Part shown: piece after piece, positions 16,683-59,872 of the stretch | How positions within the stretch are numbered: the first letter of the stretch is position 1 | Layout: each line of letters opens with the position of its first letter | IMG/VR virus record: IMGVR_UViG_3300035698_035307 | Coordinates: 23,521-87,520 of that record | DNA length: 64,000 nucleotides | Source of the DNA: a virus | Lineage: Duplodnaviria; Heunggongvirae; Uroviricota; Caudoviricetes | Reading direction: 5' to 3' (one strand) | Position numbers and translations under genes: made by a program | The notes under the pieces: model-generated | What the model was told of the DNA's origin: nothing | Database searches by the model: none | Seen by the model: only the letters and a program-made list of their open reading frames with translations

Positions 16683-17006
16683 ATGACTAAGATAAAATTT
16701 AAAGTATTATCATTTGACGGATTTATCAGCGAAAGTTTATCTGGTTTAAAATCTGCGAAAGATAAGAAGAACAAAGCTGCTTCAAGAGCAGGTGATTTAG
16801 AAGGACGTTCTGAAAAGAACCAAGCTAAATATGTTTTCTATGATGACAAAGAGAAATATGAAAAGAAACATCTGAAACTTCAGAATGATATCAAAGCTGA
16901 AGATGATAAAGTACAAAAGGAAAAACTTAGAGCAGAACTTAATAATCTCAAAAAAGAATGGAAGACAGAGCAAGCGAAATACAAAAGCGCAATAAAAGCA
17001 ATGTAA
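16683..17006 (+). CDS. Basic coiled-coil protein with a capsid-targeting-like leader
   Basis: 107 aa with KVLSFDGFISE; plus-strand AATATATAAATA at 16648-16659. Confidence 0.7.
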   Translation: MTKIKFKVLSFDGFISESLSGLKSAKDKKNKAASRAGDLEGRSEKNQAKYVFYDDKEKYEKKHLKLQNDIKAEDDKVQKEKLRAELNNLKKEWKTEQAKYKSAIKAM

Positions 17007-17554
17007 GAAAGAAAAGACGTGCTAAAAGGAAAGCTAAGAATAAAAAGACTCACAGGAGAACATATAAACTAAAGCGAGTACATTTCGGTTGGTGGAAAAG
17101 AAGATTCAATATAATGTTGGACCCACTTAAACCATTTGAAAGAAATGTTCTACTTGACAACCCCCTATTAAAATATTCTGCAGATGATGACCAATTCGTT
17201 CTCATACTCTTTAAGATGTATGACATGCAACGGGATGCAAAAACCCATAACAAACAATTCATTAATCCTTACAATGATAGTATAACTAATTTTAAAGAGA
17301 TTCGTAAAGCTTCTAAGAATGTTAATTGGAAATGTGCTATCTGTAGTGAAAAAATCATTTCAACTATTCATAACTTTGATGTAGATAATTTCTTATGCCC
17401 TATCTGTATGGAAACTCATAGTAAAGGTCAATTTGTAGATGACCGTATTGTACAGTCTTCTGTAAAATTTAGAAAAGCATGTGAATATTTATATAAGCAT
17501 CAGGAAGAAACCTATAAAGAATTTGTTAGGAAGTCCGAACAGGACAGTCGTTAA
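16958..17554 (+). CDS. Hypothetical Zn-finger protein with a basic N-terminus
   Basis: 198 aa with CAIC...CPIC; overlaps both neighbours. Confidence 0.6.
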   Translation: MEDRASEIQKRNKSNVRKKRRAKRKAKNKKTHRRTYKLKRVHFGWWKRRFNIMLDPLKPFERNVLLDNPLLKYSADDDQFVLILFKMYDMQRDAKTHNKQFINPYNDSITNFKEIRKASKNVNWKCAICSEKIISTIHNFDVDNFLCPICMETHSKGQFVDDRIVQSSVKFRKACEYLYKHQEETYKEFVRKSEQDSR

Positions 17555-18323
17555 GTGCATCTTCTACTGTGCACTTTGGAATACTTCTTAGTTTTGATTT
17601 TGGATTTGCATTCCATAATTCGATACCTTCAGTTTTAAGCAGTTCAAATACCCCATCAAAGTTACCAATCATATTTCGTTCATAAATCTTATGGTCGTGA
17701 CGTATACCGTATCCTTCATGCCAATGAGTCTTTCCATCACCAGATTCCATATCGAATCCAAGTAAGTAAATCTTTTTAACACCTAAATGGAAAGCTACAT
17801 TAATTGCAGCAAAGCCAGAATTGTTTCCAGCTCTTATAAAGTTTGGTCTTTTATCTAGACCTGTCCTACCTGATGTAGTTAATAGTACTACGTCTGGCGC
17901 GAGGCTAGGTGCATTTCTACAAGTAACCTTAATACCTTTAAGACTGTCTATAGCAGGTTTATTCCAACGATAGAATCTCGCATCCGTCCAGTATACTACT
18001 TCTGACCAGGGCATAACCTGAAAAGCTTTATTAATAGCTATTGTATGTTTACCTTTAAGTTGATTCCAATTGAAATTTTTAAGAGATGGGCCACCTCCTA
18101 CGATATAAACAGTATCACCATTCCAGATTTTCTTAAGCTTATTGTTCTCATCTCTATGAGGAAGAACATGTGTTCGTTTAATTTTATCTTTAGGTACTAT
18201 CTTTGACATCTTTTGATTTTTAATAGGTGCATTAGTAAATTCCACAGCCTTTTGCTTAGTCTGTTTCTTAACAATACTAGGTTTTATATTAACTTTACGT
18301 TGAATGTTTCGATTAATTGGCAT
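17526..18323 (-). CDS. DUF115/MAF-like putative glycosyltransferase
   Basis: IVGGGPSL, TIAINKAF, NNSGFAAINVA, KIYLLGFDM, and LWNANPKS motifs are typical of this family. Confidence 0.7.
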   Translation of the reverse strand: MPINRNIQRKVNIKPSIVKKQTKQKAVEFTNAPIKNQKMSKIVPKDKIKRTHVLPHRDENNKLKKIWNGDTVYIVGGGPSLKNFNWNQLKGKHTIAINKAFQVMPWSEVVYWTDARFYRWNKPAIDSLKGIKVTCRNAPSLAPDVVLLTTSGRTGLDKRPNFIRAGNNSGFAAINVAFHLGVKKIYLLGFDMESGDGKTHWHEGYGIRHDHKIYERNMIGNFDGVFELLKTEGIELWNANPKSKLRSIPKCTVEDALNDCPVRTS

Positions 18324-18337
18324 ACTTAGAAGAGATT

Positions 18338-18363
18338 AAAAAGGCCTACGTATTGTAGGCCTT
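18338..18363 (-). terminator. Terminator after the scaffold/core gene
   Basis: 9-bp stem AAGGCCTAC/GTAGGCCTT followed by a T-run. Confidence 0.8.
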
Positions 18364-18370
18364 CTGTTGA

Positions 18371-19981
18371 TTATTTATATAAGTTTTTTAAAGCTTCTGA
18401 ATTAGCTAAAAGATTTCTTATGTTTGATATGTTGTGTTCTACTTTTTCTTGAGTTTCATCAGCTGTTGATTCTTTCTCTTTCCAGAATGATACAGAAATT
18501 TCACCTTTGTCGTTAGCAGTAGTTGGTTTTACTTTCTTAATAATATCTTTCTGTTCATATTTATCTAACTCTTCAGTAGATGGTGTTGATTTTGACCAAC
18601 CTGCATCTTCTAATTCTTTAGCTTTTGTTTCATATTCGCTATTATCAATTTCTTCTGGAGTATCTTCTTCTTTCTTTTCAGGTTCTTCTTCTTTCTTTTC
18701 AGGTTCTTTCTTTGTACCACCTGCATCTCCTAAAGCTTTTTCAATATCATCAATTGCTCTTGATTGAGCTGATACTTCTTTTGCAGCTGCATCATAGCCA
18801 GCAGTATCACCATCTTCTTTAGCCTTGTTCATTTTTTTAACAAGTACTTCCTGTTCACCTTTTGCAATGTCTAAATCAGCTTGTGCCTTTTCAGCATCAG
18901 AAGGTCCTTTTTCTTCGTCTTTAACTTTAGATGTTGCATCAGTATCAGCTGTTCCACCAATCTTTGTGATTTTATCTAAATATTCTTTTTCTTTTTCTTG
19001 ACTAACCTTTCTTGCGTCTTCTTTATCCATCAACTTATTAATATCTGTAATAATAACCTGTCTCTTATGAAGTAACTTATAAAGGTCTTTCTCTAATTCA
19101 TCAATCTTATCTGATGCAGCTTCATCTACACTTTCTTTCTTTACAAGGTTTTTAAGTTTAGAACCAATTCCTCCACCGTCATCGTCTTCAGCATCTTGCT
19201 TATCTTCTTTCTTTTTATTTTCAGCATCTTCTGCATCTTTCTCTTCAGCTTCAATTTCTCCACCAGCTGCTTCAATATCTTTTGCAACTGCTTCGATGTT
19301 TTTATTAATTCCATCTATTTTTCTTATAAGAGGTGCAACTTTTTCTGCAGAACCATCTTTAACATCTTTAGTGTCAGCTTTAAGCTTATCAGTCTCGTCC
19401 TTTAACCCTGCTTCTAATTCTGTAGAGGCTTGTTGAAGTTCTTTATGTTTTAATTTGAGTTCTTTAATCTTATCAGGAGCTAATTGAAGTATATCTGCAT
19501 TGTCAAGTTTGGTTTTTGCAATGGCAGCTTCTGAATCAGCTTTGTATTTTTGATGTATTCTACCTAAATATTTAGAACCACCTATTTTATCTGTAAGTTC
19601 TTGTTCCATTTTTTCTATCTGAGCCTTTCTGTGGTCAGCTTGTGCATGGAATTTATCAGTTTGTTTCTTAAGCTTTTCTTTTGCACCTTTAGCTTTTTCT
19701 GGGTCCATTTCAGCTATGTCAGCTTTCTGTTTAGAAATTGCAACCTGATGATTAACGTCTTCTATCTTCTTAGAACCAATAGCTAAAGTAGCTTGTTTAA
19801 CTTTCTTAGCTTTTCTTAGATTTGATATTGCTTTAAATATACCAAACCCTAACAATCCAGCACCACCAATTGCAACTCCTGCTGCAGTCTTAGCTGTGCT
19901 GAATCCTTTATCTAATAACGCACCTAAGTCCTGGTCTCCTTCGAAAAGAACATTAGCTTCGTCAATTATTTCAGTTAGACT
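18371..19981 (-). CDS. Charged coiled-coil head/core protein, downstream (-1) frame of the scaffold-like gene
   Basis: The frame is open from the A9 run (19981) to 18371 (536 aa). The track start at 19855 is only a TTG, and the first ATG is far inside the ORF. K/E/D-rich, with VDE and LFE sites. Confidence 0.7.
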   Translation of the reverse strand, partial: SLTEIIDEANVLFEGDQDLGALLDKGFSTAKTAAGVAIGGAGLLGFGIFKAISNLRKAKKVKQATLAIGSKKIEDVNHQVAISKQKADIAEMDPEKAKGAKEKLKKQTDKFHAQADHRKAQIEKMEQELTDKIGGSKYLGRIHQKYKADSEAAIAKTKLDNADILQLAPDKIKELKLKHKELQQASTELEAGLKDETDKLKADTKDVKDGSAEKVAPLIRKIDGINKNIEAVAKDIEAAGGEIEAEEKDAEDAENKKKEDKQDAEDDDGGGIGSKLKNLVKKESVDEAASDKIDELEKDLYKLLHKRQVIITDINKLMDKEDARKVSQEKEKEYLDKITKIGGTADTDATSKVKDEEKGPSDAEKAQADLDIAKGEQEVLVKKMNKAKEDGDTAGYDAAAKEVSAQSRAIDDIEKALGDAGGTKKEPEKKEEEPEKKEEDTPEEIDNSEYETKAKELEDAGWSKSTPSTEELDKYEQKDIIKKVKPTTANDKGEISVSFWKEKESTADETQEKVEHNISNIRNLLANSEALKNLYK

Positions 19982-20688
19982 TTTTTTTTATCCTCATCTT
20001 CCTCAGCTTCTTCAGCTGCGGCAGCTTCTTCTTCTTCCTTAAGTTTCTTAGCTTCTGCTTCTTCCTCTAATTTCTTAGATTCTTCAAGTTCTTCTTCTTT
20101 CTTCTTAGCTTCTGCTTCTTCTTCCTCTAATTTCTTAGATTCTTCAAGTTCTTCTTCTTTCTTCTTAGCTTCTGCTTCTTCTTCTTCCTTAAGTTTCTTA
20201 GCTTCTGCTACTTTTTTAGCTTCTAAAGTTTCTTCGTCTTCTTCTTCGTCATCATCATCTGACTTAGTTGCTGCAGCTTTTTCTTCTTCTTCTTTCTTCG
20301 CAGCTGCTTCTTTTTCTTCTTTCTCTTTATCAGCTTCTTCGCCAGATTTTTCAGAACCTTCTTCTTCGTCGTCATCGCCTTTTTTCTTTTCGGCATCTTC
20401 TTCCTCATCAGATTCTTCTTCTTCGTGCTCATCGCCTTCTTCACCTTCTTCTTCCATTTGGCCTACAAATTCTTCAAAAGACATTATCTTATTAAATTCG
20501 TTAAGACTAATTACAGTGTCTGCAGTTTTGTGTGCTACATAAAGTTCAAAGATTTCTTCATTCATATGCTGAACATATAATGATTCTTCTATATTACTTT
20601 CATTCAATGATTTGAACTCATCAAATACTGGTGATTTATTTTCTTTAATACAATTATCGATATAACTGTCAAGTACTTTAATTTCCAT
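19975..20688 (-). CDS. Highly acidic prohead core/scaffold-like protein
   Basis: E/K low-complexity repeats and LNE/IEE sites; lies just downstream of the major capsid gene. ATG 20688 is 24 nt below a GATATATA motif (the track start is a TTG). Confidence 0.7.
   Translation of the reverse strand: MEIKVLDSYIDNCIKENKSPVFDEFKSLNESNIEESLYVQHMNEEIFELYVAHKTADTVISLNEFNKIMSFEEFVGQMEEEGEEGDEHEEEESDEEEDAEKKKGDDDEEEGSEKSGEEADKEKEEKEAAAKKEEEEKAAATKSDDDDEEEDEETLEAKKVAEAKKLKEEEEAEAKKKEEELEESKKLEEEEAEAKKKEEELEESKKLEEEAEAKKLKEEEEAAAAEEAEEDEDKKKV
20038..20200. repeat. Tandem ~60-bp coding repeats (EAKKKEEELEESKKLEEE)
   Basis: Two near-identical copies are flanked by two EAKKLKEEEE units. Confidence 0.85.
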
Positions 20689-20870
20689 ATTGTACAATTT
20701 TTTTCTTTGTTTATATATCTCTGACAAATACTCGAACCATTGTCAAAATTAGCTGAGAACCCAGCTGGTTTATCATGTCTTACTTAAGTTATTACAATAG
20801 AATGAATCTACATCATTGTGCGAACTGACCTAATCAGTCTAATTAGTATTTCAATGGTATCATATAACCC

Positions 20871-20899
20871 AAAAAAAGGAACTCACTAGGAGTTCCTTT
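20871..20899 (-). terminator. Terminator after the major capsid gene
   Basis: 10-bp stem AAAGGAACTC/GAGTTCCTTT followed by a T-run. Confidence 0.85.
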
Positions 20900-20920
20900 A
20901 TAATATAATTAATCAATCGA

Positions 20921-22615
20921 TTAAATCATTTGGAAAGTGCTGAAGTCAACACCGAATGTGTAGTAATATAATTGAGGGTGGAAACCTGCTTCAACTAATG
21001 CATATCTAGACTTGATAGCAATTTTAGGAGCCATTGTTCCTTCTGCAATTGTAGATACTGATTCTGCCATTAAATAAGGCATGAATACAAGACCTGGTGA
21101 ATTACCGTCACCTTTTCTTCCAACTAATACTCTGTTGTCATTCCAACCCATATATGGGTCAACGTATACTGTTACGCCTGCTACTTGTCCTACTGGATAA
21201 AGTGAACCACCTTGTTGATTAAACGTGTTGGCCATTGCGTAAGGTACGAAACCTGAGATATCTTGTAAAGCTGTTGCAACTTGTCCGTTAGTTACTGCGA
21301 AGTTTGCTGCTCCTCTTCTACCTCTGATTGATACAAGGTTACTTGCTGCTAAAATTCTAGAAAGAATTTGTCTTTGAAGTGTTCCTTTGTTATCACCTGC
21401 TGTTGGTGTTGATGCTGGTACATTACCAGTAACTACTGCATTTCCTTCGTTGTCGTTTCCTAATGCGAAAGTTGTAGTACCACCTGTTGCGATGTATAAT
21501 GAAAGCTGAGTGCTATCATAAGCTTCAATCTGGCTATTATTAGTGTTACCTAATGCGAATAATCTGTCTAAGATATTCTTGTTAATTGATTGAGTAAGTT
21601 CGTTAGTAAGAATTGCTTCTACTTGAGCTACTGCGTCAATACCGAATTGTTTTAAATCTTGGATTTGCTCTCTAGTAACTGCTGCTGCTACTTGGAAAGT
21701 TTTAGCTTCAACTGACTTGTTGAATAAACTAAGACCCATAATGTTATCTTGTTGTGATTCACCTTCGCCTCTTGAATAAGGAGAGTTAGAATTAAACGTA
21801 GAACCAGCAAGTCCTGATAATCCGCTACCTGAGAATCCAGTAATATGGTCTTCAAGTGCTTTTACTAATTCAGCTGCACCGTCTATTTCTAGAACATCAG
21901 TTGATGCATTCTGTGTAGTATGGTTAGAGAATAAGCTATTACCTGCTGTAATTGCCATACCTAATGTGTCGTTAGGAGTTGCAAGACCTTTAGCATAAGT
22001 AGTTGCAGCAACACCTGTTGAAGTTTCTACTTTAAAGATTGGATAGTTATCAATTCTAGAGTTACCTACAAAGGTTAATCTGAATGTTGCAGTTGTTGAA
22101 CCAGCTGCTATTTGTGTGTATGCTACATCACCTTCTGCTAATGCCGCTGCTCCAGTTGATGCTGTTGCTGGGAATTTAACTAATAATGGTGCTTCAGTTC
22201 CATCAGTTCCACCTGTTACAGCGCCGATAGTACCACCTGCATATACAAAGTCTAAATAAGTCATCATTCCAAGAGGACCACTCATTGGAATAACAGGTAC
22301 TAAATCAAGTCCAATAGTTTGTGCTGCTACTTGCAATGCAAGTGGAAGTAAACTATAAGCTTTGTCACCAGAACCAGTTGTTTGGCTAGTGAATGCATTT
22401 TGTGTACCTGGGTCACCTGGAAGTGTTACTGGTCCCATACCTGGAACGTTCATACCTGGATTAAGGTGTACTAAGTTGTTCGCATCTTCGTAAAGATTGT
22501 GAAAGTGAGCGTATTTCGACATCCAACCAAGTTTATTAGCGTCTTCAACGCCAGTTGCTTCCTTGATAATAGGAGTCCATGTTGCTCTAACTTCTGCTTC
22601 GTTTATAAGTTTCAT
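20921..22615 (-). CDS. gp23: Major capsid protein
   Basis: 564 aa with TIGLDLVPVIPMSGP, EINQSIN-like ELTQSINK, GLVFMPY, PKIAIKSRYAL. Confidence 0.95.
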   Translation of the reverse strand: MKLINEAEVRATWTPIIKEATGVEDANKLGWMSKYAHFHNLYEDANNLVHLNPGMNVPGMGPVTLPGDPGTQNAFTSQTTGSGDKAYSLLPLALQVAAQTIGLDLVPVIPMSGPLGMMTYLDFVYAGGTIGAVTGGTDGTEAPLLVKFPATASTGAAALAEGDVAYTQIAAGSTTATFRLTFVGNSRIDNYPIFKVETSTGVAATTYAKGLATPNDTLGMAITAGNSLFSNHTTQNASTDVLEIDGAAELVKALEDHITGFSGSGLSGLAGSTFNSNSPYSRGEGESQQDNIMGLSLFNKSVEAKTFQVAAAVTREQIQDLKQFGIDAVAQVEAILTNELTQSINKNILDRLFALGNTNNSQIEAYDSTQLSLYIATGGTTTFALGNDNEGNAVVTGNVPASTPTAGDNKGTLQRQILSRILAASNLVSIRGRRGAANFAVTNGQVATALQDISGFVPYAMANTFNQQGGSLYPVGQVAGVTVYVDPYMGWNDNRVLVGRKGDGNSPGLVFMPYLMAESVSTIAEGTMAPKIAIKSRYALVEAGFHPQLYYYTFGVDFSTFQMI

Positions 22616-22663: not shown

Positions 22664-24493
22664 TTAATATTTACCATTCATTCTTTTAACAGATTGGATT
22701 ATATATTGCGCTTTCGATTCGTCAATTGCGGTATTTTCAACTTTCGCTGTAGTTTTACTTTCATTAACTTTCTCAATTACAATAGAAACATCTCTTAAAT
22801 CTCTTGTTTGCCAGAAATTATCAATCTGGTACTGAGTGTCTAATTTTGAGTATTTCGATTCGGCTATAATCTGATTCTTTTTAGCTTCGCTTAATTTATC
22901 CCATGTTTCACGGTATTCTGTTCCCATGTCTCTGATAAATCCAAGACCATCATTCTTTTCCTCTGGCTTAATTGCCGTTTCATAAATCTGTTCTACTTGT
23001 TCTTTATTAAAGTAGTTCTTGCCTTCAAACGCCTTTACAACGACGGTTTGTTTTTCTGCATCAAGTGCATAAAATCCGTCTTGCTTCTCTTTTGGTAAAA
23101 ATTGCATGAAATGCATTGTACCTTCTACTGTTTGCTTCTTAGCAGATTCGAGAATCATATTTAATTTTTCTGAAATTTCTTCTTTATAATCTTTTGGTTT
23201 AGTTTCCACTTTTGTATCGTTTGTGTTCGTATTAGTATTCGCATTCTCTTCAACATGAACTGCTGCAGATTTGTTTACGAATTTGTTGAATTTTTCTCCA
23301 ACTGTATTTGAATAGTTACCAACGTTCTCAAGATTACCTTTAAGGTATTCGGTATAGTTAACGTGCTTGTTAAAACCTTCACCTAAATAGTTTGTATATT
23401 TAGCTAAATCATTTGAACTTTCACCTATATATTTTGAGTATTCTTTTATTTGGTTTGCTCCAGTTGCTACGTGCTCAATATACTTAATTGCTTTTTCTAA
23501 TTCTGCACCTTGATACTCACCAAAGTTAATACCTTGATTAGTCTTTTCTGCAACGTGGTTTAAATGTTTTACTACGGTTTCTAATGTTTCGCTTAAGTAA
23601 TTGCTAAATTCTACAGATTTGTTAGCACCTTCGCCAACATGTCCTGAATAATCTTTAACTTTATTTAAACCTTCAGTAAGATAATTGTTATGACTAACTA
23701 ATTTATCTACGTTACCACCGATATAGTTAACATATTCAAATAATTGATTAACCTTCTGTGCTATTGCTTCAGAATATTCAATACCTGATTCTGTTTTGGT
23801 TTCTTTCAGTGCACCTTTTAAACCAGTGATTTCTTCTGAAATATATTTTGACCATTTTTCAAAATCCGGAGTTGAAACAAATTTATTATCTTCCATGTTC
23901 TCAGGGTTATTTTCTTTAATATATGTATCGCGGAAAAAGTCTTCTGGTACTTCAAAAACATGAACGTTATCATCATTTGTAAAACCGTACTGCTCATTCA
24001 CTCTTTTCAGCTGTGCATTTGCAAATCCAGGGTCAGCAACTAAGTCATAAGTAAATAATTTCTTAATTCTAACGTGTCCATTAGATTCTACAACACCTGC
24101 TGCTCTAGATGAGATATGAAGTGGTACGCCACCTTCTGCAAGTGCTTGGGCTTCTTTACCATGTGTAGTATCCAGTAATCTGATTCTTCCTAATACTTGT
24201 TTAGATTCTTTATCGTATTCTAGTTTCTCTATAACGTGTGAAGCTTTTGATAAAGAAACGTCAAAGTTTTGTGGATGGTCTAATTCACCTAATAATGTTC
24301 CAGCGCCAATTTTCTCTTGTAAGCCTTCAATCTGTGGTAAATATTCTGATTCATCATATATTCTTCCGTTCTTATTCTTGACTCCTATTTCGCCAAAAAT
24401 ACCTTCAAACACATAATTACCATTTTCATCCTTCTGTACCTGTACAGCAGGAGCTGTCTCTAAAATTAGAAGGTGTTTTAATTGTTCTGACAT
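22664..24493 (-). CDS. gp21: Prohead protease fused to a scaffold-like coiled coil
   Basis: The first ~170 aa carry NKNGRIY, GELDHP, SHVI, ISSRAAG and DLVADPG. The remainder is a 14-residue-periodic helical region. Confidence 0.9.
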   Translation of the reverse strand: MSEQLKHLLILETAPAVQVQKDENGNYVFEGIFGEIGVKNKNGRIYDESEYLPQIEGLQEKIGAGTLLGELDHPQNFDVSLSKASHVIEKLEYDKESKQVLGRIRLLDTTHGKEAQALAEGGVPLHISSRAAGVVESNGHVRIKKLFTYDLVADPGFANAQLKRVNEQYGFTNDDNVHVFEVPEDFFRDTYIKENNPENMEDNKFVSTPDFEKWSKYISEEITGLKGALKETKTESGIEYSEAIAQKVNQLFEYVNYIGGNVDKLVSHNNYLTEGLNKVKDYSGHVGEGANKSVEFSNYLSETLETVVKHLNHVAEKTNQGINFGEYQGAELEKAIKYIEHVATGANQIKEYSKYIGESSNDLAKYTNYLGEGFNKHVNYTEYLKGNLENVGNYSNTVGEKFNKFVNKSAAVHVEENANTNTNTNDTKVETKPKDYKEEISEKLNMILESAKKQTVEGTMHFMQFLPKEKQDGFYALDAEKQTVVVKAFEGKNYFNKEQVEQIYETAIKPEEKNDGLGFIRDMGTEYRETWDKLSEAKKNQIIAESKYSKLDTQYQIDNFWQTRDLRDVSIVIEKVNESKTTAKVENTAIDESKAQYIIQSVKRMNGKY

Positions 24494-46449: not shown

Positions 46450-46473
46450 AAAAGCGAACTACAGTTCGCTTTT
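46450..46473 (-). terminator. Terminator overlapping the stop of the last accessory-block gene
   Basis: 10-bp stem AAAAGCGAAC/GTTCGCTTTT. Confidence 0.7.
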
Positions 46474-47791: not shown

Positions 47792-50700
47792 TTATGCTTT
47801 CTTAAATTTATTTATCTCCAAAGTTACGGTAGATATTCCTGATATGTTAGTTCTAATCATTAATACTACTTGGTAAACTTCATCTTTGAACTTAACTTTA
47901 TAATCAATGTTAAGTCCCTTTGCAGTATTCTTATCAATTATATTTATAAGTTTGTTATCATCTATGATTTCTACACCACTCTGAGCTGGGAATGCTTCAG
48001 GTTCATGAATAGCACCTTTACTGGCACCAATAAGTTTGAAGAACGTAGGGTTCTTACCTAAACTTAAACCGAAAGAAGCTATTGAAATAAAGATATTCTT
48101 TTCAGCAGTAGTGTTCTCTAGAAGATAATACATCATTTTTAAGGCAGCGTACTTCGCTCTTGTATAATCATATACTTTAGCTTTGTTATTCTTCTGGAAT
48201 GCATCCTTATCAACTGTATATGTAAAGTAGTCAGAGTGCTTCTTAACTTGAGATGCAATTTTATTTCTAAAATTACCAATCTCTTTATAGTACTGTGCAA
48301 TCTTAAGACTATCTTCTTTCTTTGTTAGGTTATATGAATCAAGTTCAGTACCTTCTCTTCTTTTCATTGACTTCAAGAATGATTTGGCTTTACCTGCTTG
48401 AGCATTTTGTTCTTTAAGTGATATTCCTAATATCTGGTTTGAAGTATCTCCCCATGTATTAACAAAAATACCATTGATGTAACCTAATGCAAGTTCTTCA
48501 TTTGGTTCAGCTAAAGCTTTTGCAGTTTCAGTGTTGATTGAACTTTCTGTTCCTGGCTTAACTAAGAATATGTCAGATGAGTTCCATTTGTCAGAATATA
48601 AACCTGATACTTTTGCACCAGCACTTTTTACTTTGTCAAATATCTTATCTCTTTCAATATTCCATTTGCTATATTTACTGTTAGCTAAATATTCACCAAT
48701 TGACATTGCATTGTTCAATGACTTTACAATTCCTGGTGAGAATGTTTCTTCTGAAGAAGCTAATGTTTTAATGTTGTCATCTAATACTTTCTTTGATGTA
48801 CCTTCAATTCCATTTGATTTAAGATTTTTAAGTATCTCAGCTATCTTTTCAATGTAATTTTCTTTATCAATTCTGCCATAACCTTTGTTCTTAAAGTAAT
48901 AGTTTACGAAACTCTCTTTAAAGTCAGTAGATGTCTTTGCTGAGTCTTGTGAACCACCTGCTAGAATCATATAAATCTCGTCATCATTTACTTCAAATTC
49001 AATTGTAGTAAACTTACCTGAGTAAGCTCCTCTCTTTGTTACACTTGAAGGTAAACCTGCGATGTTTGGTTTTTCACCTGGTTCAATAGTTGTAACTGGG
49101 CCAGTTAATGTATATTCAGAATGGCTTTCAATGAATGTATTTATATCTTCTGTAAATTCTTCTACACTAACCTTTGTTATATTATTCACTCTATCTTTAG
49201 CACTTGCTGAACTATACTTACTTGAATAGCTTGCAATGAACTGTTTAATAAATGTGTTTCTTGTTTGAGAGTTTAATGATTCATTTATTATCTCATCGTC
49301 TTTGGATTCGTTTATAAAATCATTGAATGATTTCACTTGGAATGAATTTGATTCTCCCACTTTTTGTAATATTTTTTGCATATCTTTATATAATGGCCAT
49401 ACCCCTTTAGGTGTCCATTTCTTAAAATCTTTATCGTTATCGTCTTTAATAGCTTCTCTTACTTTAGTGGCTGATATGTTTTCTCCACTTCGTTTGATTT
49501 CAAATGCATTGAAGTCATCACCTGCGTTTAATTCTGTTCTGTACTTATCAATCATCTTCTGATATTGAGCATATCTGTCAGTACCTGCTCCCCATAAAAC
49601 TGGTTCGTACTTTGGACGCATTAAATTGAATAATGTATCAGGTGCTGCGTTAGGTGTAATAAAAGCATCCTTTAAGAATTTATATTCTTTTTGCATTCCT
49701 TTAAACATCTTTAATTGCATCTTATCATCGAAAGGTCTTCTTTCTGGGTCTGGCTTTCCACCTCTTACAATCATTACAACTACAGGTAAACCGTTCTTCT
49801 TGTGAATAGTTTCAAGTACTTTAACATGACCTAATGTAAATGGTTGGAAACGACCTACAAACATATTCACCTTTTCTTTACCAGGTTCTTTATGGTCTAA
49901 TGTAAGTGCTTCAAATATTTGGCTCTCGAAAATATCATTCTCTTCTTCTTGGATTCTACTTGTTCTTAAGAACGACGCAAAATCTAATACTTCGTTTTCC
50001 ATTGGCATTGCGTTTGTTTTCTTTTGTATTGAAGCTACAATATCATTGATAATTTTGATCGATTCATCTGAAAGTAAATCAGTTGCATGTTTACGAGTTT
50101 TCTTAAAAGAACTTAGCATAATTTTAAAAAGGTCATGCATAGCAGGATTCTTAAGAATCTTCTTAGTCACTTCGTTATCTATAAATTCTGGGTTCAATTG
50201 GAATACATCTTGCTTTGCAAAATCAGGAGTCTGAAAGTCCATGCCAGCATATTTATAACCGTTCGTTGCTACATACTGATTAAATATTGTTGATATTAAA
50301 TTGATGTATCTTTGGTCAGCTGTTTCACCTTCAACTGAAACATCATTTATGTCTAATGAAGATAAGAACTCAATTATATCAAGCATGATTATTTGATATG
50401 TGTCGTTCGACTTTCTATCTTCTTTCTTTAAGTTTGTCTTTTGCATTTCTTGAAAAAGTGGGTCAATTACTTGTGCGTTATAAACTTTCTTACCATTTAT
50501 AAACTTAAACACAATACTCTCTACCATATTGTCTAGAGAATTATTTAGAGCAGTCTTCTTCAGATTTGGATTGAGAATACTTACAACATATCTGGTAAAA
50601 GATTGAGTCTTAAATAGTGATTCTAAATCTGCATATGATGTATTCAAATAATCTTTAATCTTTTGCTTCTGTTGTAAGTTTAATTTTCCTTGAAATATAA

Positions 50701-51160
50701 CAGCAGGGTCTTGAACATCAAATGTCTCAGCCCATTTTTCTAAGATTGTTGTATCACTTATCACTTTAACTACATTACCACCTTCATTTCTAATAAGAAT
50801 GTCTGTGATGATTAAATTATTATGAGGAACACTATCATAAGTTACTGTAACTGGCTTTGTGTTTGCAACATATTCAAAACAAAAGTCCCAAGCTTCGGGC
50901 ATGATGTTCTTAATATCTACTGACATTGAGTCAAAGAATGTAATTGGTCTTTCATAGTAAACCATAATAGTTCTGTCAATCAAATTAATAGGATTCTTAT
51001 CATTCCCCTTAAAGAAGATTAAATTATCTCCCTTTCGTTGAACTCTGAATCGACTACCATCAATCATCTCAGTTACTATTACGTATTGATTAAGAAGCTT
51101 TTCAATGAAAGACGCTCCTTTTTCTGCATATATGTCTTTAAATGTTGCTAAGTTAGCCAT
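47792..51160 (-). CDS. Three-domain protein: degenerate ligase-fold, HIGH-class nucleotidyltransferase and PD-(D/E)xK-like nuclease
   Basis: TEMIDGS (KxDG motif with K replaced by M), FVGRFQPFTLGH...ISATKVR, and DKWNSSDIFL...GISLK. Confidence 0.7.
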   Translation of the reverse strand: MANLATFKDIYAEKGASFIEKLLNQYVIVTEMIDGSRFRVQRKGDNLIFFKGNDKNPINLIDRTIMVYYERPITFFDSMSVDIKNIMPEAWDFCFEYVANTKPVTVTYDSVPHNNLIITDILIRNEGGNVVKVISDTTILEKWAETFDVQDPAVIFQGKLNLQQKQKIKDYLNTSYADLESLFKTQSFTRYVVSILNPNLKKTALNNSLDNMVESIVFKFINGKKVYNAQVIDPLFQEMQKTNLKKEDRKSNDTYQIIMLDIIEFLSSLDINDVSVEGETADQRYINLISTIFNQYVATNGYKYAGMDFQTPDFAKQDVFQLNPEFIDNEVTKKILKNPAMHDLFKIMLSSFKKTRKHATDLLSDESIKIINDIVASIQKKTNAMPMENEVLDFASFLRTSRIQEEENDIFESQIFEALTLDHKEPGKEKVNMFVGRFQPFTLGHVKVLETIHKKNGLPVVVMIVRGGKPDPERRPFDDKMQLKMFKGMQKEYKFLKDAFITPNAAPDTLFNLMRPKYEPVLWGAGTDRYAQYQKMIDKYRTELNAGDDFNAFEIKRSGENISATKVREAIKDDNDKDFKKWTPKGVWPLYKDMQKILQKVGESNSFQVKSFNDFINESKDDEIINESLNSQTRNTFIKQFIASYSSKYSSASAKDRVNNITKVSVEEFTEDINTFIESHSEYTLTGPVTTIEPGEKPNIAGLPSSVTKRGAYSGKFTTIEFEVNDDEIYMILAGGSQDSAKTSTDFKESFVNYYFKNKGYGRIDKENYIEKIAEILKNLKSNGIEGTSKKVLDDNIKTLASSEETFSPGIVKSLNNAMSIGEYLANSKYSKWNIERDKIFDKVKSAGAKVSGLYSDKWNSSDIFLVKPGTESSINTETAKALAEPNEELALGYINGIFVNTWGDTSNQILGISLKEQNAQAGKAKSFLKSMKRREGTELDSYNLTKKEDSLKIAQYYKEIGNFRNKIASQVKKHSDYFTYTVDKDAFQKNNKAKVYDYTRAKYAALKMMYYLLENTTAEKNIFISIASFGLSLGKNPTFFKLIGASKGAIHEPEAFPAQSGVEIIDDNKLINIIDKNTAKGLNIDYKVKFKDEVYQVVLMIRTNISGISTVTLEINKFKKA

Positions 51161-52184: not shown

Positions 52185-52400
52185 TTATAATTTCTTCTTT
52201 AAATCCTTAAGAGTTTTGATTTGGTCATTGATATATTCTTCAGCTTTGTCTGCATCTCCATCATCAACCCATTGTTGAATTGCATCTAATTCAGATTTGA
52301 TATTTTTAATCTTTATACTGAAATATCTAGAATCCATACCTTCGTTCACAGTATTCTCTTCTACTTTATGAAATTCTTCGAAGCTTTTAATGTTGTCCAT
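52185..52400 (-). CDS. Small probable internal head protein
   Basis: 71 aa with leader NIKSFEEFHKVEE. Confidence 0.7.
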   Translation of the reverse strand: MDNIKSFEEFHKVEENTVNEGMDSRYFSIKIKNIKSELDAIQQWVDDGDADKAEEYINDQIKTLKDLKKKL

Positions 52401-52409: not shown

Positions 52410-53723
52410 TTATTTTTGCATTGAGTACTTAAGCGTACCTAATATTTGATTAACACTTGCAAATGCACCTGTTAACTTGTATGTCTTACCATTATATTGA
52501 AATACTATTCCTTCTGTAGGTAAAATTGCATCAAAACCACCAATTGCTTGAAGTCTACTTAATTGATACTTCATCTTGTGCATCAATGTTAAATCACCAG
52601 ACTTCTCAATCTGCTTCTGTAAATCTTCTAATTGCTTCTTAATGTCTTGTACTACCTTATCTGGATTAGCTGCAAGATAACCTGTAGCGTTTTTAAGTAC
52701 TTCCACTCCTAATGATAAGAATAACTCTTCAATTGGTTGAATATAGTCTTTACCGACTTGTTTAAATTCTTTCTTTGCAAATCCTACAACCCACTTTAAG
52801 AATTTAGGTGATTCTTTAAAATCTTTCTTCATGTTACCTACTGAGTAGCCATTGTCATAAAATCCAAATCTCTTAATTAAAAGAGGTATTTTCTCTTCTG
52901 CAACTTCTACTTCTAAATCTAAAGATTGAGCTTTCTTCTCAAGGAATGATTCCCATTCTTTGTAAATGTAATCTCCAATAGTATCAGTAGCACTTAAGCT
53001 CCATTTCTTTTGAATTTTATCTACAATTTTCATGAATCTCGCTTGATTCTTCTCAAAGTCTATAACCTTAGGCATATCTATTACTGCAGGAGGTCTGATA
53101 ACATAATGTTTTTGTATATCACTATTAACTCCTTTAATAAGTTTCTGTAGCGTATTCGCAGCTTCCTTATCGTCTGAAACAGGGTTACCTTCTTCATCGT
53201 AAGTAGTTGCACTGTGGAATATTAAATGTGGAGCGTCATAGTTAATAACGTTTGTTGATGGCGGGTAAATTACCTCGAGATGCATGAACGCATACCCATC
53301 TTTAAAAATTAAATCTCTATCTTTCGCAGAGACTTTTGAAATAGCCGATTCTAAATCTTCTATAGCAAATGTAAAACCATCTGAAAGGTCTCCTCTGCCA
53401 GCAAATTTATCTATTACTTGTTGTACAGTCATTGCAGCTGCACCACCATTTTTACGGTCACCTTTGTTACGTGCTGCAACTAAGTGGCCATCTCTCCAAC
53501 TAATAGCAATTGCTTGCCCATCAAGTTTTTCAGTAGATTCGACTTCTTTGTTTAATTGACCTTGTAAAGCCTGGTCAATAATGTCTTTGATTTGTGTAAA
53601 TGTAAGTGATGTATCATCGTAAGGATGGCTCATGTGTCCAAAAGCCCCACCTTCTAAAATAAAATCAGCTACATCTACATTATAATTCTCATTGACATAC
53701 TCTGTGAATGATAATAGCTTCAT
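52410..53723 (-). CDS. RNA-ligase-like covalent nucleotidyltransferase
   Basis: Motif I TEKLDG (K66), IFMHLE (III), EGIVF (IV) and YKLTG (V); N-terminal GGAFGHMSHP. Confidence 0.7.
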   Translation of the reverse strand: MKLLSFTEYVNENYNVDVADFILEGGAFGHMSHPYDDTSLTFTQIKDIIDQALQGQLNKEVESTEKLDGQAIAISWRDGHLVAARNKGDRKNGGAAAMTVQQVIDKFAGRGDLSDGFTFAIEDLESAISKVSAKDRDLIFKDGYAFMHLEVIYPPSTNVINYDAPHLIFHSATTYDEEGNPVSDDKEAANTLQKLIKGVNSDIQKHYVIRPPAVIDMPKVIDFEKNQARFMKIVDKIQKKWSLSATDTIGDYIYKEWESFLEKKAQSLDLEVEVAEEKIPLLIKRFGFYDNGYSVGNMKKDFKESPKFLKWVVGFAKKEFKQVGKDYIQPIEELFLSLGVEVLKNATGYLAANPDKVVQDIKKQLEDLQKQIEKSGDLTLMHKMKYQLSRLQAIGGFDAILPTEGIVFQYNGKTYKLTGAFASVNQILGTLKYSMQK

Positions 53724-53728
53724 TTATA

Positions 53729-54340
53729 TTATGCTTTTTTTCCTTTACCTTTTGTCCAACCGTTCTTTACCTTTGTGAAAAATTCTTTCTTCTTTTCTTC
53801 ACTTAATTCTCCTTGACTTTTAACGCCAAATTCAGCAAGTAAAGCTGAGAAATATTCTTTGTATTCTTTCTGTAATGGAGAAAGTTCTACTTCTAAAAGA
53901 GATTCAATATCTTCTGATTCTTCTATAACTGATTCACCTAATGTAGATGATGCAGCTCCAACCATTGCACCCCAATCGTCTTTATGTTTTGAGATAAGAC
54001 CGTTAATTACTTTGTCTGCTTTGCTAGCATCAAATTCATCGCCAAAAGCTTTCTTATAAAGTGCATATACATACTCCTTAAAAGATTCTTTGTCTTTAAC
54101 ATCTGCTTCGTTTAAAGCTTCGCTAACGCCGTCACCTTCCCAAGTGTTAATTTCATTGTAAAATTTAGCTCTTTTTTCTTCGTCTAATTCAGCAGGTGTG
54201 CTTACACCGTATTCTTGTAACTTAGTTTTGAAAAATTCACCATATTGAGCTTGTTTAGCTGCTTTGTCTTCTTCTACTTTCTTCGTCTGTACTTCAGACA
54301 TAAAAGTTGTGAAAGATTGAAAAGATTTAATATGTTCCAT
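53729..54340 (-). CDS. Probable internal head protein with a duplicated helical module
   Basis: Leader HIKSFQSF; QYGEFFKTKLQEYGVSTPAELDEEKRAKFY is paralleled by EYKEYFSALLAEFGVKSQGELSEEKKKEFF. Confidence 0.7.
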   Translation of the reverse strand: MEHIKSFQSFTTFMSEVQTKKVEEDKAAKQAQYGEFFKTKLQEYGVSTPAELDEEKRAKFYNEINTWEGDGVSEALNEADVKDKESFKEYVYALYKKAFGDEFDASKADKVINGLISKHKDDWGAMVGAASSTLGESVIEESEDIESLLEVELSPLQKEYKEYFSALLAEFGVKSQGELSEEKKKEFFTKVKNGWTKGKGKKA

Positions 54341-54366
54341 ATTTTAAAGTTTATTTTTTTTATATA

Positions 54367-55866
54367 TCAAAATCTCACTACTTTAATGTCGTATGGAAAC
54401 TTCTGTTCTTTATAGATTCTTAATCTTTCCTTTGCATGTTTGAACAAATAGTTCTCATAGCCTTCATATCTAAAGTCATCAACGAAGTCAATGATTATAA
54501 GAAGTTCTTTACCTTCAAGCTTTCTTAAGCCTCTTCCAATACTTTGTCTAACAACTACATCAGACTTAAATGATTCAGTAAATAATACGTAGTGGATATT
54601 CTTAACAGATATACCAGTACTGAAAGTTCCAAAAGAAGCTACAAGAACTACATCTTCACCTGCTTCCATTTTAGCTTTGTAAACTTCTCTCATTTGTTTA
54701 TCAGTGTGACCATCTACATAATATACTTGCTTATCTGTATCGTTTCTTAGTTGGTTGTAAATAGCTGTACCATGTTCTCTCCTGTGGAAAAGCACCAGTG
54801 CGTTTTTATTTAACTTACCTATTAATTTGCAAATGAAATTTCTTCTACTTTCACTTTCAATGATATAATTTTGTTCAAGATTAAATACTTTCTTACCGTC
54901 CGTATTTGGGTCTTTCGCTAGACTCTTAAATGCATCTTTAGTTTTTTCATCAATGTAATCCATGTGAATAATCTTAGCTTTACATTTAGCGATGTAATCA
55001 TTCTTCTGTAAGAAGTTGGCTGTAATCTCAGACATTAATGGTCCAGTATGTGACATAAGTGTAAGTCTATCAAGAGTTCCCTTCTTAGGGATAGTTCCAG
55101 ACAGTCCAAAACAGTAATCATTCTTCTTGCAATTATCAAGAATGTCTTTAATTGATTTAGCTTTTACTTTATGAGTCTCATCTACCATTACTACATCAAA
55201 GTCATCGTAATATTCTTCCTTCTTTTTAACAAGTGATTGATATGTACCGATAACAAAGTCGCAGTCGTCTTTGATTTCTTGACCTGCATAAATTTGTTGT
55301 ACTTTATATTTTACTTTACCTCTATAATTGTATTCGGCAAAATCTTCAGTCCCTTGTATTACTAAACTTACGTTAGGTACAATAAGAAGGAATTTATTAG
55401 CCATACCATGTGCTTTAAGGTAAGCGAATATGATAAAAAGTATGAATGTTTTACCAGCTGAAGTAGCTAGTTCTGCCATACATCTTCTATATTTTATAAT
55501 TTTAAAGGCTGTTTCTAATTGATAAGGTCTTGGTTTAAGTGGATTGTCTGCAAAAAATATATCACACCAATTTTTGAACGATTCGTAAGTCAAACCATTA
55601 TTAAATATCGCACTTATATTCTTAAGCTGAATTGGATATTCATGTTCTTTCGCTATGTCATATACTTCGCGCCATAAACCTGACTGAACATATTTGTCAT
55701 GCTTAAAAAAGCTGAAGTAACCATCCCAAATCTTTTTCTTAACAAGTGGGTGAAACTTCCAGTTCTTTATTCTTTTCGTTAATGAAATATTAAGCTGGTC
55801 AATTTCAATTGAAGTTGCCTGCTCAAGAATAAGCCATCTTTTATCTTCTGATAAGTTAAATATCAT
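54367..55866 (-). CDS. uvsW: SF2 DNA helicase
   Basis: PRPYQ, ATSAGKT, DETH, GLSGT, GTFSTGI and QSIGRGLR motifs. Confidence 0.93.
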   Translation of the reverse strand: MIFNLSEDKRWLILEQATSIEIDQLNISLTKRIKNWKFHPLVKKKIWDGYFSFFKHDKYVQSGLWREVYDIAKEHEYPIQLKNISAIFNNGLTYESFKNWCDIFFADNPLKPRPYQLETAFKIIKYRRCMAELATSAGKTFILFIIFAYLKAHGMANKFLLIVPNVSLVIQGTEDFAEYNYRGKVKYKVQQIYAGQEIKDDCDFVIGTYQSLVKKKEEYYDDFDVVMVDETHKVKAKSIKDILDNCKKNDYCFGLSGTIPKKGTLDRLTLMSHTGPLMSEITANFLQKNDYIAKCKAKIIHMDYIDEKTKDAFKSLAKDPNTDGKKVFNLEQNYIIESESRRNFICKLIGKLNKNALVLFHRREHGTAIYNQLRNDTDKQVYYVDGHTDKQMREVYKAKMEAGEDVVLVASFGTFSTGISVKNIHYVLFTESFKSDVVVRQSIGRGLRKLEGKELLIIIDFVDDFRYEGYENYLFKHAKERLRIYKEQKFPYDIKVVRF

Positions 55867-55871
55867 TGTGT

Positions 55872-56321: not shown

Positions 56322-56322
56322 C

Positions 56323-57647: not shown

Positions 57648-57653
57648 TATCTA

Positions 57654-58610: not shown

Positions 58611-58697
58611 AATACTTGTTCTTTTTTTATTAATTTGCCTGTGTTAAATGCCTTATTGCACCATTTGTTGGTACAAGATATATATCGGCATTTGTTA

Positions 58698-58728
58698 AGT
58701 CTAATCACCTATTTCAGAAAGGTTTCAG
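58698..58728 (-). promoter_or_regulatory. Early/middle promoter CTGAAA-N19-TAGACT upstream of gp32
   Basis: Shares the YTGAAAC element. Confidence 0.45.
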
Positions 58729-58828
58729 AAATTTAGCAGATTTATTTTGAACAAAGTTTTTATTGGATTTTTTGAAACATAGGCGTAGAAACCTGATACA
58801 ATATTCACAGGGTTCCCAACCGTTAAGC

Positions 58829-59488
58829 TTAGGTCTTTACCTTCAGGGCCTGAACCACGAAATAGGCATCTATCATGTCATCTACTGGAGTTGGCACCTT
58901 TTTACCAACTGTTAAGCCAGTACAATATTCCCAGAAAAAGCTTTTTTCCAGGTCAGGGTCTTTAAGTTGGTTCTCTACGAATACATCAAAAAGTTCTCGC
59001 TTCTTCATATTACCATTTCCGGCTTGCATCTTAATCGTCTTTGGAGAATATACCTTAAAGATATCTTCTGGCCCAACGATATTATTCATGACCAGCTTTT
59101 TAAATAAAGTAGTAGCGGTTGCAAGTTCTATGATGTTATTTGTTTTAGTGAATCGAGACCCATAAGAATAACCTTCAAATGCTAACTTAATTAAGAAGTC
59201 ATCACTTGGCGGAATAACGAATTTTAGTAACTGGAGTAATTTCCCGGCCTGTATATCGTACTTCTGCATCTTGAAAATATCTTTATCTTCATATGCAACA
59301 TCAGGAACAACATATTCCTGTAACTCATATTGAACATCTGATAGCTCCCCGATTTCCTTTTGAAGATTCTTGTCTTTCTTGGTTTTGTTTAAAGTGGGAT
59401 GGCTGACCCATGTATAATTACCATTCTTATATACACATACAGCTGGACTATTTATAGAGTAGTCAACTCCGATAAGTATTTCTTTCAT
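58829..59488 (-). CDS. ruvC: RuvC-like Holliday junction resolvase
   Basis: IGVDYS, FEGYSYG, SPKTIK and DDMIDAY acidic tetrad pattern. Confidence 0.8.
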   Translation of the reverse strand: MKEILIGVDYSINSPAVCVYKNGNYTWVSHPTLNKTKKDKNLQKEIGELSDVQYELQEYVVPDVAYEDKDIFKMQKYDIQAGKLLQLLKFVIPPSDDFLIKLAFEGYSYGSRFTKTNNIIELATATTLFKKLVMNNIVGPEDIFKVYSPKTIKMQAGNGNMKKRELFDVFVENQLKDPDLEKSFFWEYCTGLTVGKKVPTPVDDMIDAYFVVQALKVKT

Positions 59489-59491
59489 TTA

Positions 59492-59872
59492 TTAAATTTT
59501 TAACCTACTACCTAAAGCTGCACCTACTGCGGCACCTACTAAACGACTTGTAAGTAAATTATATAAGAATCCGTCTTTAATTCCTAAAACTTTAGCAATC
59601 AATTTACCAACTGTCTTACCTAATGCAAGTCCAGTAAGTCCACCTAACATAGTACCAAAGATACCTTCATTAGTTAATTCACTATTAAAATCATTAATAT
59701 CTTTAACTCCATCTAAATATTCTGCAACAAATTCGTCTAATGCAGAGTCTATCTTAGCTTCTTCATCTTCTGTTAACTCTTCCTTTAAGTTTTCATTAAG
59801 AGATTTTATTTCTTCTTCGGTAAAGTATTCGTTTTCTTGTAAATACTCTTTAAATGATTTTACTTGGTCCAT
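59492..59872 (-). CDS. Probable head protein with a glycine-zipper hydrophobic C-terminus
   Basis: Leader QVKSFKEYLQE; GxxxG repeats (GTMLGGLTGLALG, LVGAAVGAALG). Confidence 0.7.
   Translation of the reverse strand: MDQVKSFKEYLQENEYFTEEEIKSLNENLKEELTEDEEAKIDSALDEFVAEYLDGVKDINDFNSELTNEGIFGTMLGGLTGLALGKTVGKLIAKVLGIKDGFLYNLLTSRLVGAAVGAALGSRLKI

Follow-up and report, generated by a model that had tools for sequence, protein, structure and literature searches.

The window considered in this study is a stretch of 64,000 nucleotides, bases 23521-87520 of one 151,520-bp virus contig (IMGVR_UViG_3300035698_035307); the whole genome is called G000. Ten proteins encoded in the window, several of them enzymes, carry a short common N-terminal leader that resembles the capsid-targeting sequence (CTS) of phage T4 and that probably directs them into the phage head. 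Genes are named by their start coordinate in the window (e.g. w26178), and genome positions count along the 151.5-kb G000.

The window has a G+C content of 33%, and one of its strands holds nearly all genes. PHROG and Pfam searches reveal a T4-type head and replication set in G000. The head set includes a gp23-like major capsid protein (MCP), a gp20-like portal, a gp2 DNA-end protector and a gp4 head completion protein; further T4-type genes encode the gp55 late sigma factor, the tail tube, the sheath, a gp32-like single-strand DNA-binding protein, a helicase and a prohead protease. The closest capsid proteins come from huge uncultured phages and from Bacteroidota phages (LR756500, 58%; Lak, 41%; Tenacibaculum PTm1, 34%; PAU, 32%). 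The source of the DNA is an uncultured T4-related phage of Bacteroidota. A megablast search with 8 kb of the window found nothing similar among the GenBank phages. CheckV puts the completeness of G000 at about 54%, and all leader counts given for this genome are therefore lower bounds.

Leader-bearing genes of the window

The ten leader genes are w16683 (plus strand), w26178, w36593, w46459, w46715, w51167, w52185, w52410, w53729 and w59492. All of them had been named in an earlier reading of the same DNA (the sequence-only reading), and in each the motif is present at the N-terminus. The same reading had claimed two internal instances, which are likewise present: VKSFNDFINE at aa 609-618 of a 1122-aa protein and IMSFEEFVGQ at aa 81-90 of a scaffold candidate. 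The leader genes and the 1122-aa protein are listed here, with a slash for the putative cleavage site.

16683-17006, plus strand: basic 107-aa protein, isoelectric point (pI) 9.7; leader VLSFDGFISE/S at aa 8-17; no Pfam/PHROG family
26178-27341, minus strand: predicted class-II CCA-adding-type nucleotidyltransferase, 387 aa; 14-aa leader MKVKGFKEYNLLIE/AA; Pfam PolyA_pol, E 8e-34
36593-37132, minus strand: PNK-type HAD 3'-phosphatase, 179 aa; leader FIKTFGQFIKE/G; Pfam PNK3P, E 2e-19, domain from aa 28
46459-46713, minus strand: 84-aa mini-protein; leader FTFEEFANE19/D, followed by a copy of MCP residues 44-91 and a Lys11 tail
46715-47776, minus strand: 353-aa protein; leader MLFEDFKESLNE/A; weak YqeY/GatB-like C-terminus
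47792-51160, minus strand: 1122-aa fusion protein; ligase-like N-domain, cytidylyltransferase-like domain at aa 433-569, internal leader, C-terminal module
49307-49336, minus strand: internal leader VKSFNDFINE/S, aa 609-618 of the 1122-aa protein; 20.8 bits, the best internal match in the genome
51167-52183, minus strand: ATP-grasp protein (R2K/RimK-TTL-like), 338 aa; leader LQTFNEYLTE/A; Pfam R2K_2, Dala_Dala_lig_C and TTL
52185-52400, minus strand: acidic 71-aa protein; leader IKSFEEFHKVEE/N
52410-53723, minus strand: predicted RNA-ligase-type covalent nucleotidyltransferase, 437 aa, from fold and motif I; leader MKLLSFTEYVNE/N on a disordered linker
53729-54340, minus strand: 203-aa protein; leader IKSFQSFTTFMSE/V; first gene of a seven-gene string
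59492-59872, minus strand: acidic 126-aa protein; leader VKSFKEYLQE/N plus two weaker internal copies

The enzyme labels of the sequence-only reading hold up well. Pfam backs the CCA/poly(A)-polymerase head domain, the PNK 3'-phosphatase and the ATP-grasp protein, and the label 'ligase-like' is supported by the fold and by an invariant KxDG motif. Six more leaders are found elsewhere in the genome, at positions 4618, 6077 (probable true start M21), 7844, 13610, 14207 and 142571, which makes at least 16 unrelated G000 proteins with an N-terminal leader. The leader occurs on at least seven unrelated Pfam families. Among the G000 cargo, Pfam detects two ATP-grasp enzymes of the RimK/TTL (R2K) kind and one weak PRTase-like match. 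The cargo protein at genome position 13610 is a predicted 2H phosphoesterase, matched by the 2_5_RNA_ligase2 (LigT) and Acb1 models with 31.1 and 29.2 bits (cut-off 27). For the small cargo proteins (71-203 aa), Pfam and PHROG searches returned no known family.

Position and statistics of the leader

The consensus leader reads [VIL]-K-[ST]-F-x-[EQ]-[FY]-[IL]-x-E, and its core motif starts at residue 4-12. A regular expression for the core matched 13 times in 4,050 N-terminal residues (the first 25 of each of 162 open reading frames, ORFs) and 6 times in the remaining 45,185 residues, a 22-fold enrichment. With a stricter T4-like expression, nine N-terminal matches stood against three elsewhere (29-fold). 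A matrix was built from 15 G000 leaders, with leave-one-out scoring and a threshold of 8 bits; 13 of the 15 leaders reached it. In 200 shuffles of every protein, a mean of 1.05 N-terminal windows scored at least 8 bits (maximum 5), as compared to 13-14 observed. The N-terminal excess is thus confirmed by the genome-wide comparison with shuffled sequences that the sequence-only reading had suggested. Its statement that the motif is absent from the N-termini of the replication enzymes is also borne out, since none of these scores 8 bits or more; nor does any other non-leader N-terminus.

The leaders are written in varied codons (TTT and TTC, GAA and GAG, Ser both as TCN and as AGC), and their mean nucleotide identity is 0.52. 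Conserved leader positions are encoded by synonymous codons, and the signal therefore lies in the protein and not in the DNA. The terminal Glu occupies the canonical position in 10 of the 16 leaders and follows 2-5 residues later in the rest. An [LIVMA]-x-E ending was identified in all 16.

Likeness to the T4 capsid-targeting sequence

The T4 CTS, MKTYQEFIAE, undergoes a single cleavage, and any protein fused to it stays in the head (PMC8442874). CTS fusions reach the inside of the infected cell, and suppressor analysis attributes targeting mainly to residues 4 and 7 and processing to residues 8 and 10 (PMC9026906). The most informative columns of the G000 leader are those at T4 positions 4 (F15/Y1, 4.07 bits) and 7 (F11/Y4/W1, 3.43 bits), followed by T4 positions 6, 1, 2 and 10.

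When the G000 leader matrix was run over the N-termini of all 282 T4 ORFs, the internal proteins (IPs) came out near the top, IPIII and IPII at ranks 2 and 3 (MKTYQEFIAE, 14.6 bits) and IPI at rank 5 (MKTFKEFTST, 11.2 bits). T4 gp23 carries a leader-like pattern, AFGSFLTE/A, which is the gp23 maturation site. Rank 1 in the scan is held by T4 gp61.1, a hypothetical protein of 54 aa (L003:18966-19130, minus strand) that starts with MKTFKEFIKE and scores 18.6 bits; to our knowledge, it has not been reported as a head protein.

The sequence-only reading had taken the motif for a T4-type CTS or propeptide leader. Reciprocal recognition of the T4 internal proteins and the match to the mapped CTS positions argue in its favour. 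Moreover, it is supported by the presence of a gp21-family protease, by the modular attachment of the leader to unrelated folds, by the invariant terminal Glu, by lineage-specific leader swaps and by structural-type promoter motifs. The further claims of that reading, namely that the enzymes are in the virion, are cleaved after the Glu, are injected and act ahead of gene expression in RNA repair or counter-defence, are an inference by analogy with T4.

Protease, scaffold and capsid proteins

The following head-gene features of the window are linked to the leader.

19975-20727, minus strand: acidic scaffold candidate; leader-like VFDEFKSLNE/S and IMSFEEFVGQMEE; 12.5 bits; true start probably M14
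20921-22615, minus strand: gp23-like MCP; PHROG major head protein; putative maturation site HFHNLYE43/D
22664-24493, minus strand: prohead protease (gp21/S77) fused to a scaffold-like extension, 609 aa; Peptidase_S77 41.6 bits (cut-off 27) plus S80
23285-23854, minus strand: repeats of 14 residues within the extension of the protease; [FYH]-[ST]-x-[YH]-[LIV]-x-E, spaced as the leader core

The protease matches the gene 21 region of T4 in tblastn (E 1e-7), and its residues L8, L9, E12, H73, S128 and S129 are invariant in 37 sequences. Its N-terminus, KHLLILE12, is propeptide-like and resembles LLIE9 of T4 gp21 as well as the aliphatic MIRLKxILxE leaders of ligase homologues described below. 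The aromatic and the aliphatic leader class may be derived from the propeptides of two different core proteins. Some sources label members of the protease-scaffold family 'methyl-accepting chemotaxis protein'.

The protease extension comprises about 400 residues. Its G000 repeat units lie at residues 268, 282, 296, 310, 352, 366 and 394 in a strict 14-residue period, and each repeat ends in a protease-type [LIV]-x-E site. Across 120 protease homologues, the middle extension holds a mean of 9.3 units against 0.18 in the protease domain; neighbouring units are exactly 14 residues apart in 873 pairs, and the units share the consensus I-x-Y-S-E-Y-L-A-E-N. Repeat, leader and the T4 CTS core Y-Q-E-F-I-A-E have a common skeleton consisting of an aromatic residue (0), E/N (+2), a second aromatic residue (+3), [LIV] (+4) and E (+6). 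Leader-matrix matches of at least 8 bits number 78 in the extension versus 11 in shuffled sequence (7-fold). Tandem Repeats Finder detected no DNA-level repeats in the protease gene, and the repeat is visible in the protein alone. A complex prediction for the leader-bearing residues 1-36 of the CCA family with the scaffold-like protease residues 200-609, run with alignments of both, gave a score of 0.00 and a partner pLDDT (predicted local distance difference test) of 31-34, an outcome that counts neither for nor against binding.

The putative MCP maturation site is kept as HFHALNE/S in G001, a 425-kb relative that is 97% complete, and the leaders of that genome end in I-N-E/S. In G000, the local alignment of the 84-aa protein with the MCP begins exactly at E/D, with FANE19/DVVGGASLNPGM facing NLYE43/DANNLVHLNPGM. 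To judge from this alignment, the leader of the 84-aa protein replaces the putative propeptide of the MCP itself, and the two proteins have their junction at similar sites. The 84-aa protein could be a capsid N-arm mimic or a decoy loaded into the head.

The leader as a detachable addition to its cargo

By structural modelling, w26178 is a predicted member of the class II CCA-adding enzyme/poly(A) polymerase family with the full head-neck-body-tail fold. Its AlphaFold2 model (pLDDT 91.5) superimposes on the Bacillus CCA-adding enzyme 1miv with a Z score of 26.2 and a root mean square deviation (rmsd) of 3.5 A over 338 residues, and the residues G45-D50 (GGxVRD), D59 and D61 (DxD) are invariant among 36 homologues. 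Model residues 17-385 correspond to residues 1-380 of the 1miv chain, and the psychrophilic enzyme starts at model residue 20-21. Since residue 1 of 1miv is aligned to model residue 17, leader residues 1-14 precede a complete enzyme. At E <= 1e-10 the CCA family counts 6,152 homologues; among the best 120 (50-78% identity), almost every one starts with a leader. In the alignment of 36 members, E14 is the sole invariant residue among the first 23, and A15 is nearly invariant.

The product of w52410 is a predicted RNA-ligase-type covalent nucleotidyltransferase, with modest structural Z scores. In its AlphaFold2 model (pLDDT 87.3) the leader forms a short helix (aa 6-13), and aa 12-29 fall below a pLDDT of 50. 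Ligases and capping enzymes make up all of the top ~40 structural matches, the best with Z 8.3-8.4; they include the Naegleria RNA ligase (Z 8.3, rmsd 4.2 A, 189 residues), T4 Rnl1 (Z 7.8) and T4 Rnl2 (Z 7.2). Motif I, E65-K66-x-D68-G69, is invariant in 40 sequences. A sequence comparison of the 437-aa protein with PDB chains gave chance-level matches only; the ligase assignment therefore rests on the fold and motif I.

In 120 homologues of this ligase, the conserved core starts at EGGAxGHM. At least 34 of them carry an aromatic leader of the G000 type before the core and 9 the aliphatic MIRLKxILxE leader, while the others have none or a fused cytidylyltransferase domain. Since one and the same ligase core occurs with the aromatic leader, the aliphatic leader or no leader, the leader goes with the lineage of the phage rather than with the cargo.

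The 1122-aa protein starts with a degenerate leader-like ATFKDIYAE, and Pfam recognizes its cytidylyltransferase-like domain (CTP_transf_like, E 4e-10). In the relative L011 (57% identity), residues 2-599 correspond to a separate gene of 569 aa, and for this reason the internal leader is placed at a fusion junction. This 1122-aa fusion is lineage-specific. Other phages have the active ligase core of the w52410 family fused to a PF01467 cytidylyltransferase-like domain of the same kind, which suggests joint action.

At the end of the contig (genome 146407-151126) there is a second RNA-repair cluster, recognized by N-terminal sequences only, with RNA-ligase-like, metallophosphoesterase-like and P-loop kinase-like starts. 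It is leaderless, and the leader is therefore present on only some of the RNA-end enzymes of G000.

Expression context

A promoter-like motif is found ahead of the first gene of the seven-gene string.

54361-54368, minus strand: GATATATA, 28 nt upstream of the 203-aa gene

This motif has 27 copies on the gene-sense strand versus 1 on the other, and it stands 25-60 nt ahead of the genes for tube, sheath, portal and protease. Due to its position ahead of structural genes, we regard it as a putative structural-gene promoter-type element, comparable to the T4 late promoter motif TATAAATA. It precedes five leader genes, including w53729, which heads a seven-gene leader operon. The genes of this string (54340 to 46459) are separated by gaps of 1-15 nt, and the string ends at a hairpin (46450-46473). 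The CCA gene belongs to a gp4-gp2-CCA string adjoining the portal gene. This arrangement suggests that the cargo may be made together with the structural proteins.

In two ORFs the motif falls inside the first codons (window 20689-20727; L001:6566-6625), and the starts are therefore probably internal Met residues. Probable true starts are M14 of the scaffold candidate (MEIKVLD) and M21 of the ORF at genome position 6077 (MGNIVKNF).

Leaders in related phages

Leaders are kept on syntenic genes in two IMG/VR contigs whose ligases are 51-57% identical to that of G000, and the w59492 orthologue in L011 retains the leader METFKEYLD. The 425-kb G001 has a stereotyped leader variant, M-K-x-R-I-P-[ST]-[LFI]-[DNE]-[ED]-[FY]-[IV]-N-E. 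Strict matches to it number 40 at N-termini and 5 internally, with about 40-60 leaders in all; the element 'RIP' is found at 60 N-termini and in 0 matched internal windows. Leader genes of G001 lie within 20 kb of head genes in 11 of 40 cases, where 10% would be expected (P = 1.5e-3). Eight consecutive leader genes (274127-277668) are found directly downstream of its capsid gene, and one of them encodes 387 aa, the length of the CCA enzyme. The motif GATATATA is found upstream of 0 of the 40 G001 leader genes. A mild excess of ATATATAA (9 of 40 leader genes versus 69 of 658) is not informative. A duplicated 77-aa ORF with an internal leader-like motif stands at the two ends of the G001 contig (2107-2340 and 422875-423108), which suggests terminal repeats.

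In two phages of 176 and 238 kb with ~52% CCA identity, leaders occur on the CCA enzyme, on an ATP-grasp protein and on neighbours of 83 and 292 aa. Genes for a PNKP-type phosphatase, a kinase and Rnl1 lie beside these leader genes and lack the leader. Tenacibaculum phage PTm1, the nearest cultured relative retrieved (MCP 34% identical), has no leader enrichment (ratio 1.4) and no CCA homologue, and the 14-residue repeat type was not found in its protease-scaffold protein. PTm1 is therefore unusable as an experimental stand-in. Lacking both leaders and repeats, it fits a co-occurrence of the two across the three genomes compared, which is a small sample.

Interpretation and alternative explanations

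We propose, with a probability of roughly 70%, that the leader is a lineage version of the T4 CTS-type propeptide and that its cargo would be packaged, cleaved after Glu, retained and ejected into the next cell. By analogy with T4, the leader-bearing enzymes are probably present in the virion and injected with the DNA. The leader would act as an N-terminal propeptide of 12-20 residues, in which the aromatic residues at T4 positions 4 and 7 would give affinity for the prohead core. Tagged proteins would be made alongside the structural proteins and co-assembled into the scaffold core, and the capsid shell would then enclose them. While dismantling the scaffold, the S77 protease would cut at [LIV]-x-E (T4 positions 8 and 10), after the Glu. 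The freed mature enzymes would stay in the head with the DNA and would be delivered into the next host cell.

The members of the tagged set are the CCA-adding enzyme, the RNA-ligase-type enzyme, the PNK-type 3'-phosphatase, the 2H phosphoesterase, two ATP-grasp ligases and small proteins. Their nature suggests a kit that may serve RNA/tRNA end repair or counter-defence, or that may remove nucleotide signals, at the very start of infection.

As to what the leader would bind, the repeat array of the protease-scaffold protein is a tentative candidate for the core component. A fuller version of this idea, possible but doubtful, takes the leader for one free 14-residue scaffold repeat. Cargo would then join the core as 'honorary repeats' and be released by the same post-Glu cut that dismantles the core, so that a pre-made tRNA/RNA end-repair kit with ATP-grasp ligases would be delivered to disarm RNA-targeting defences before phage gene expression. 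On this view, the injected proteome of thousands of uncultured phages would be readable from sequence. The likeness is moderate, however: with the leader matrix, none of the protease repeats of G000 itself attains 8 bits and the consensus of the family no more than 8.6 bits, and T4 gp22 lacks aromatic repeats. For these reasons the equation of leader and scaffold repeat is weaker than the CTS assignment.

Several further observations speak against packaging by a CTS-type leader. A few leaders have non-canonical ends (A-N-E, M-S-E, K-V-E-E), and alignment with T4 gp23 puts the putative MCP site of G000 in a different column from the T4 site. Of the predicted mature cargo proteins, 11 of 16 are acidic (pI 4.4-5.7) and five basic, whereas the T4 internal proteins are basic. 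The gene of the PNK-type phosphatase lies in the replication module, with no GATATATA assigned directly upstream. Moreover, 16 to 60 cargo species per virion raise a question of capacity, and no virion proteome of a close relative was found in the open-access literature.

One alternative is that the leader is a regulatory propeptide which the protease removes, be it zymogen-like, for timed destruction or as a protease decoy, without stable packaging or injection. It would account for a leader end that fits the protease consensus and for the invariant E14; one would expect scaffold-type proteins that bear the motif to undergo degradation and expulsion, and acidic cargo would not bind DNA as T4 internal proteins do. 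We nevertheless judge it unlikely. The prohead protease of T4 is active only inside the assembled prohead, and substrates must therefore first be targeted there. Folded proteins of 20-50 kDa that are cut once at the N-terminus stay in T4 heads (PMC8442874, PMC9026906). The leader lies outside the catalytic fold in both models, and an inhibitory role is therefore not evident.

Slightly less probable again is a tag for some other shared partner, either a modifying enzyme that reads the leader helix or the scaffold of a cytoplasmic RNA-repair complex. Common leader helices are read by maturases of ribosomally synthesized and post-translationally modified peptides (RiPPs) and by graspetide ATP-grasp ligases. 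G000 has genes for two ATP-grasp ligases, distant relatives have their CCA and ATP-grasp genes side by side, and many cargo enzymes share one theme, RNA ends. However, the ATP-grasp enzymes bear the leader themselves, no radical-SAM gene was found in G000 by a search whose control matched 14 of 14 reference genomes, and T4 has the motif without any ATP-grasp enzyme, where it is experimentally a capsid-targeting signal. This explanation also leaves unaccounted for the invariant Glu, the [LIV]-x-E end, the MCP-mimic junction and the motifs in scaffold and protease.

That the motif has no function in the protein and only reflects composition, or acts in the mRNA close to the start codon (translation enhancer, recombination box), can practically be dismissed. 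In its favour, the genome is AT-rich with common Lys, Phe, Glu and Ile codons, and T4-type phages carry conserved DNA cassettes at gene starts. But the shuffles and the synonymous codons with both Ser families contradict it, and the pattern is still seen where protein identity has dropped to 50% and in a genome whose consensus differs.

Up to now the CTS of T4 has been seen chiefly as a curiosity of T-even phages and as a biotechnology handle. The same signal, conserved at the positions mapped by experiment, marks 10% of the G000 genes and ~6-9% of the G001 genes, and it does so on enzymes, not on small basic inhibitors. If the tag works as in T4, sequence could serve to predict which proteins a phage injects, and this throughout a very large group of uncultured phages; the CCA family by itself runs to thousands of members. 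RNA-repair and nucleotide-processing enzymes would then join ADP-ribosyltransferases and RNA polymerases as pre-packaged first-strike tools. If true, the likeness of leader and scaffold repeat would also give a testable model of CTS recognition.

Comparison with known systems

Already known are the CTS of T4 and similar leaders that T-even phages carry on their variable internal proteins. In the open-access literature we found no CTS-type leader on CCA enzymes, RNA ligases or ATP-grasp enzymes, no expansion of a leader to dozens of Bacteroidota-phage proteins and no leader-like scaffold repeat.

The G000 leader shares with the T4 CTS its N-terminal position, a length of ~10-20 aa, the aromatic residues at positions 4 and 7, [IL] at position 8 and Glu at position 10. 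In both systems a gp21-family protease is encoded in the same genome, and the tag sits on unrelated, fast-evolving cargo. T4 has three tagged proteins (plus the CTS-like N-terminus of gp61.1), which are small, basic and non-enzymatic. In contrast, the tag is found on at least 16 proteins in G000 (and on ~40-60 in G001); these include many enzymes of 180-440 aa and are mostly acidic. Further differences are that the G000 leader often begins 3-11 residues past Met1, that the host belongs to the Bacteroidota and that the protease is fused to its scaffold. As for leader types, the aromatic leader of the G000 clade is like that of the T4 internal proteins, whereas the aliphatic MI[RK]LxxILxE type resembles the N-terminus of the protease itself.

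Encapsulin cargo-loading peptides and P22-type scaffold-mediated loading are comparable in that foreign cargo enters a shell of the HK97 fold by means of a short peptide. Unlike what is proposed for the G000 leader, such peptides mostly sit at the C-terminus, attach directly to the shell protein and remain uncleaved. No sequence relationship between them and the G000 leader was found.

T4 Alt and the head or ejection proteins of the giant phages phiKZ, 201phi2-1 and SPN3US are cleaved by the prohead protease (PMC5694885, PMC7411985, PMC10052503). What G000 would have in common with them is the packaging of enzymes, among many other proteins, in the head, S77/S80-type cleavage after Glu and ejection into the host. 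The cleavage consensus of the phiKZ group is A/S/G-x-E. Giant-phage head propeptides differ in being long and heterogeneous, with only a short cleavage consensus in common and no shared targeting sequence. G000 has a compact shared tag, and its cargo is therefore predictable from sequence, unlike that of the giant-phage propeptides.

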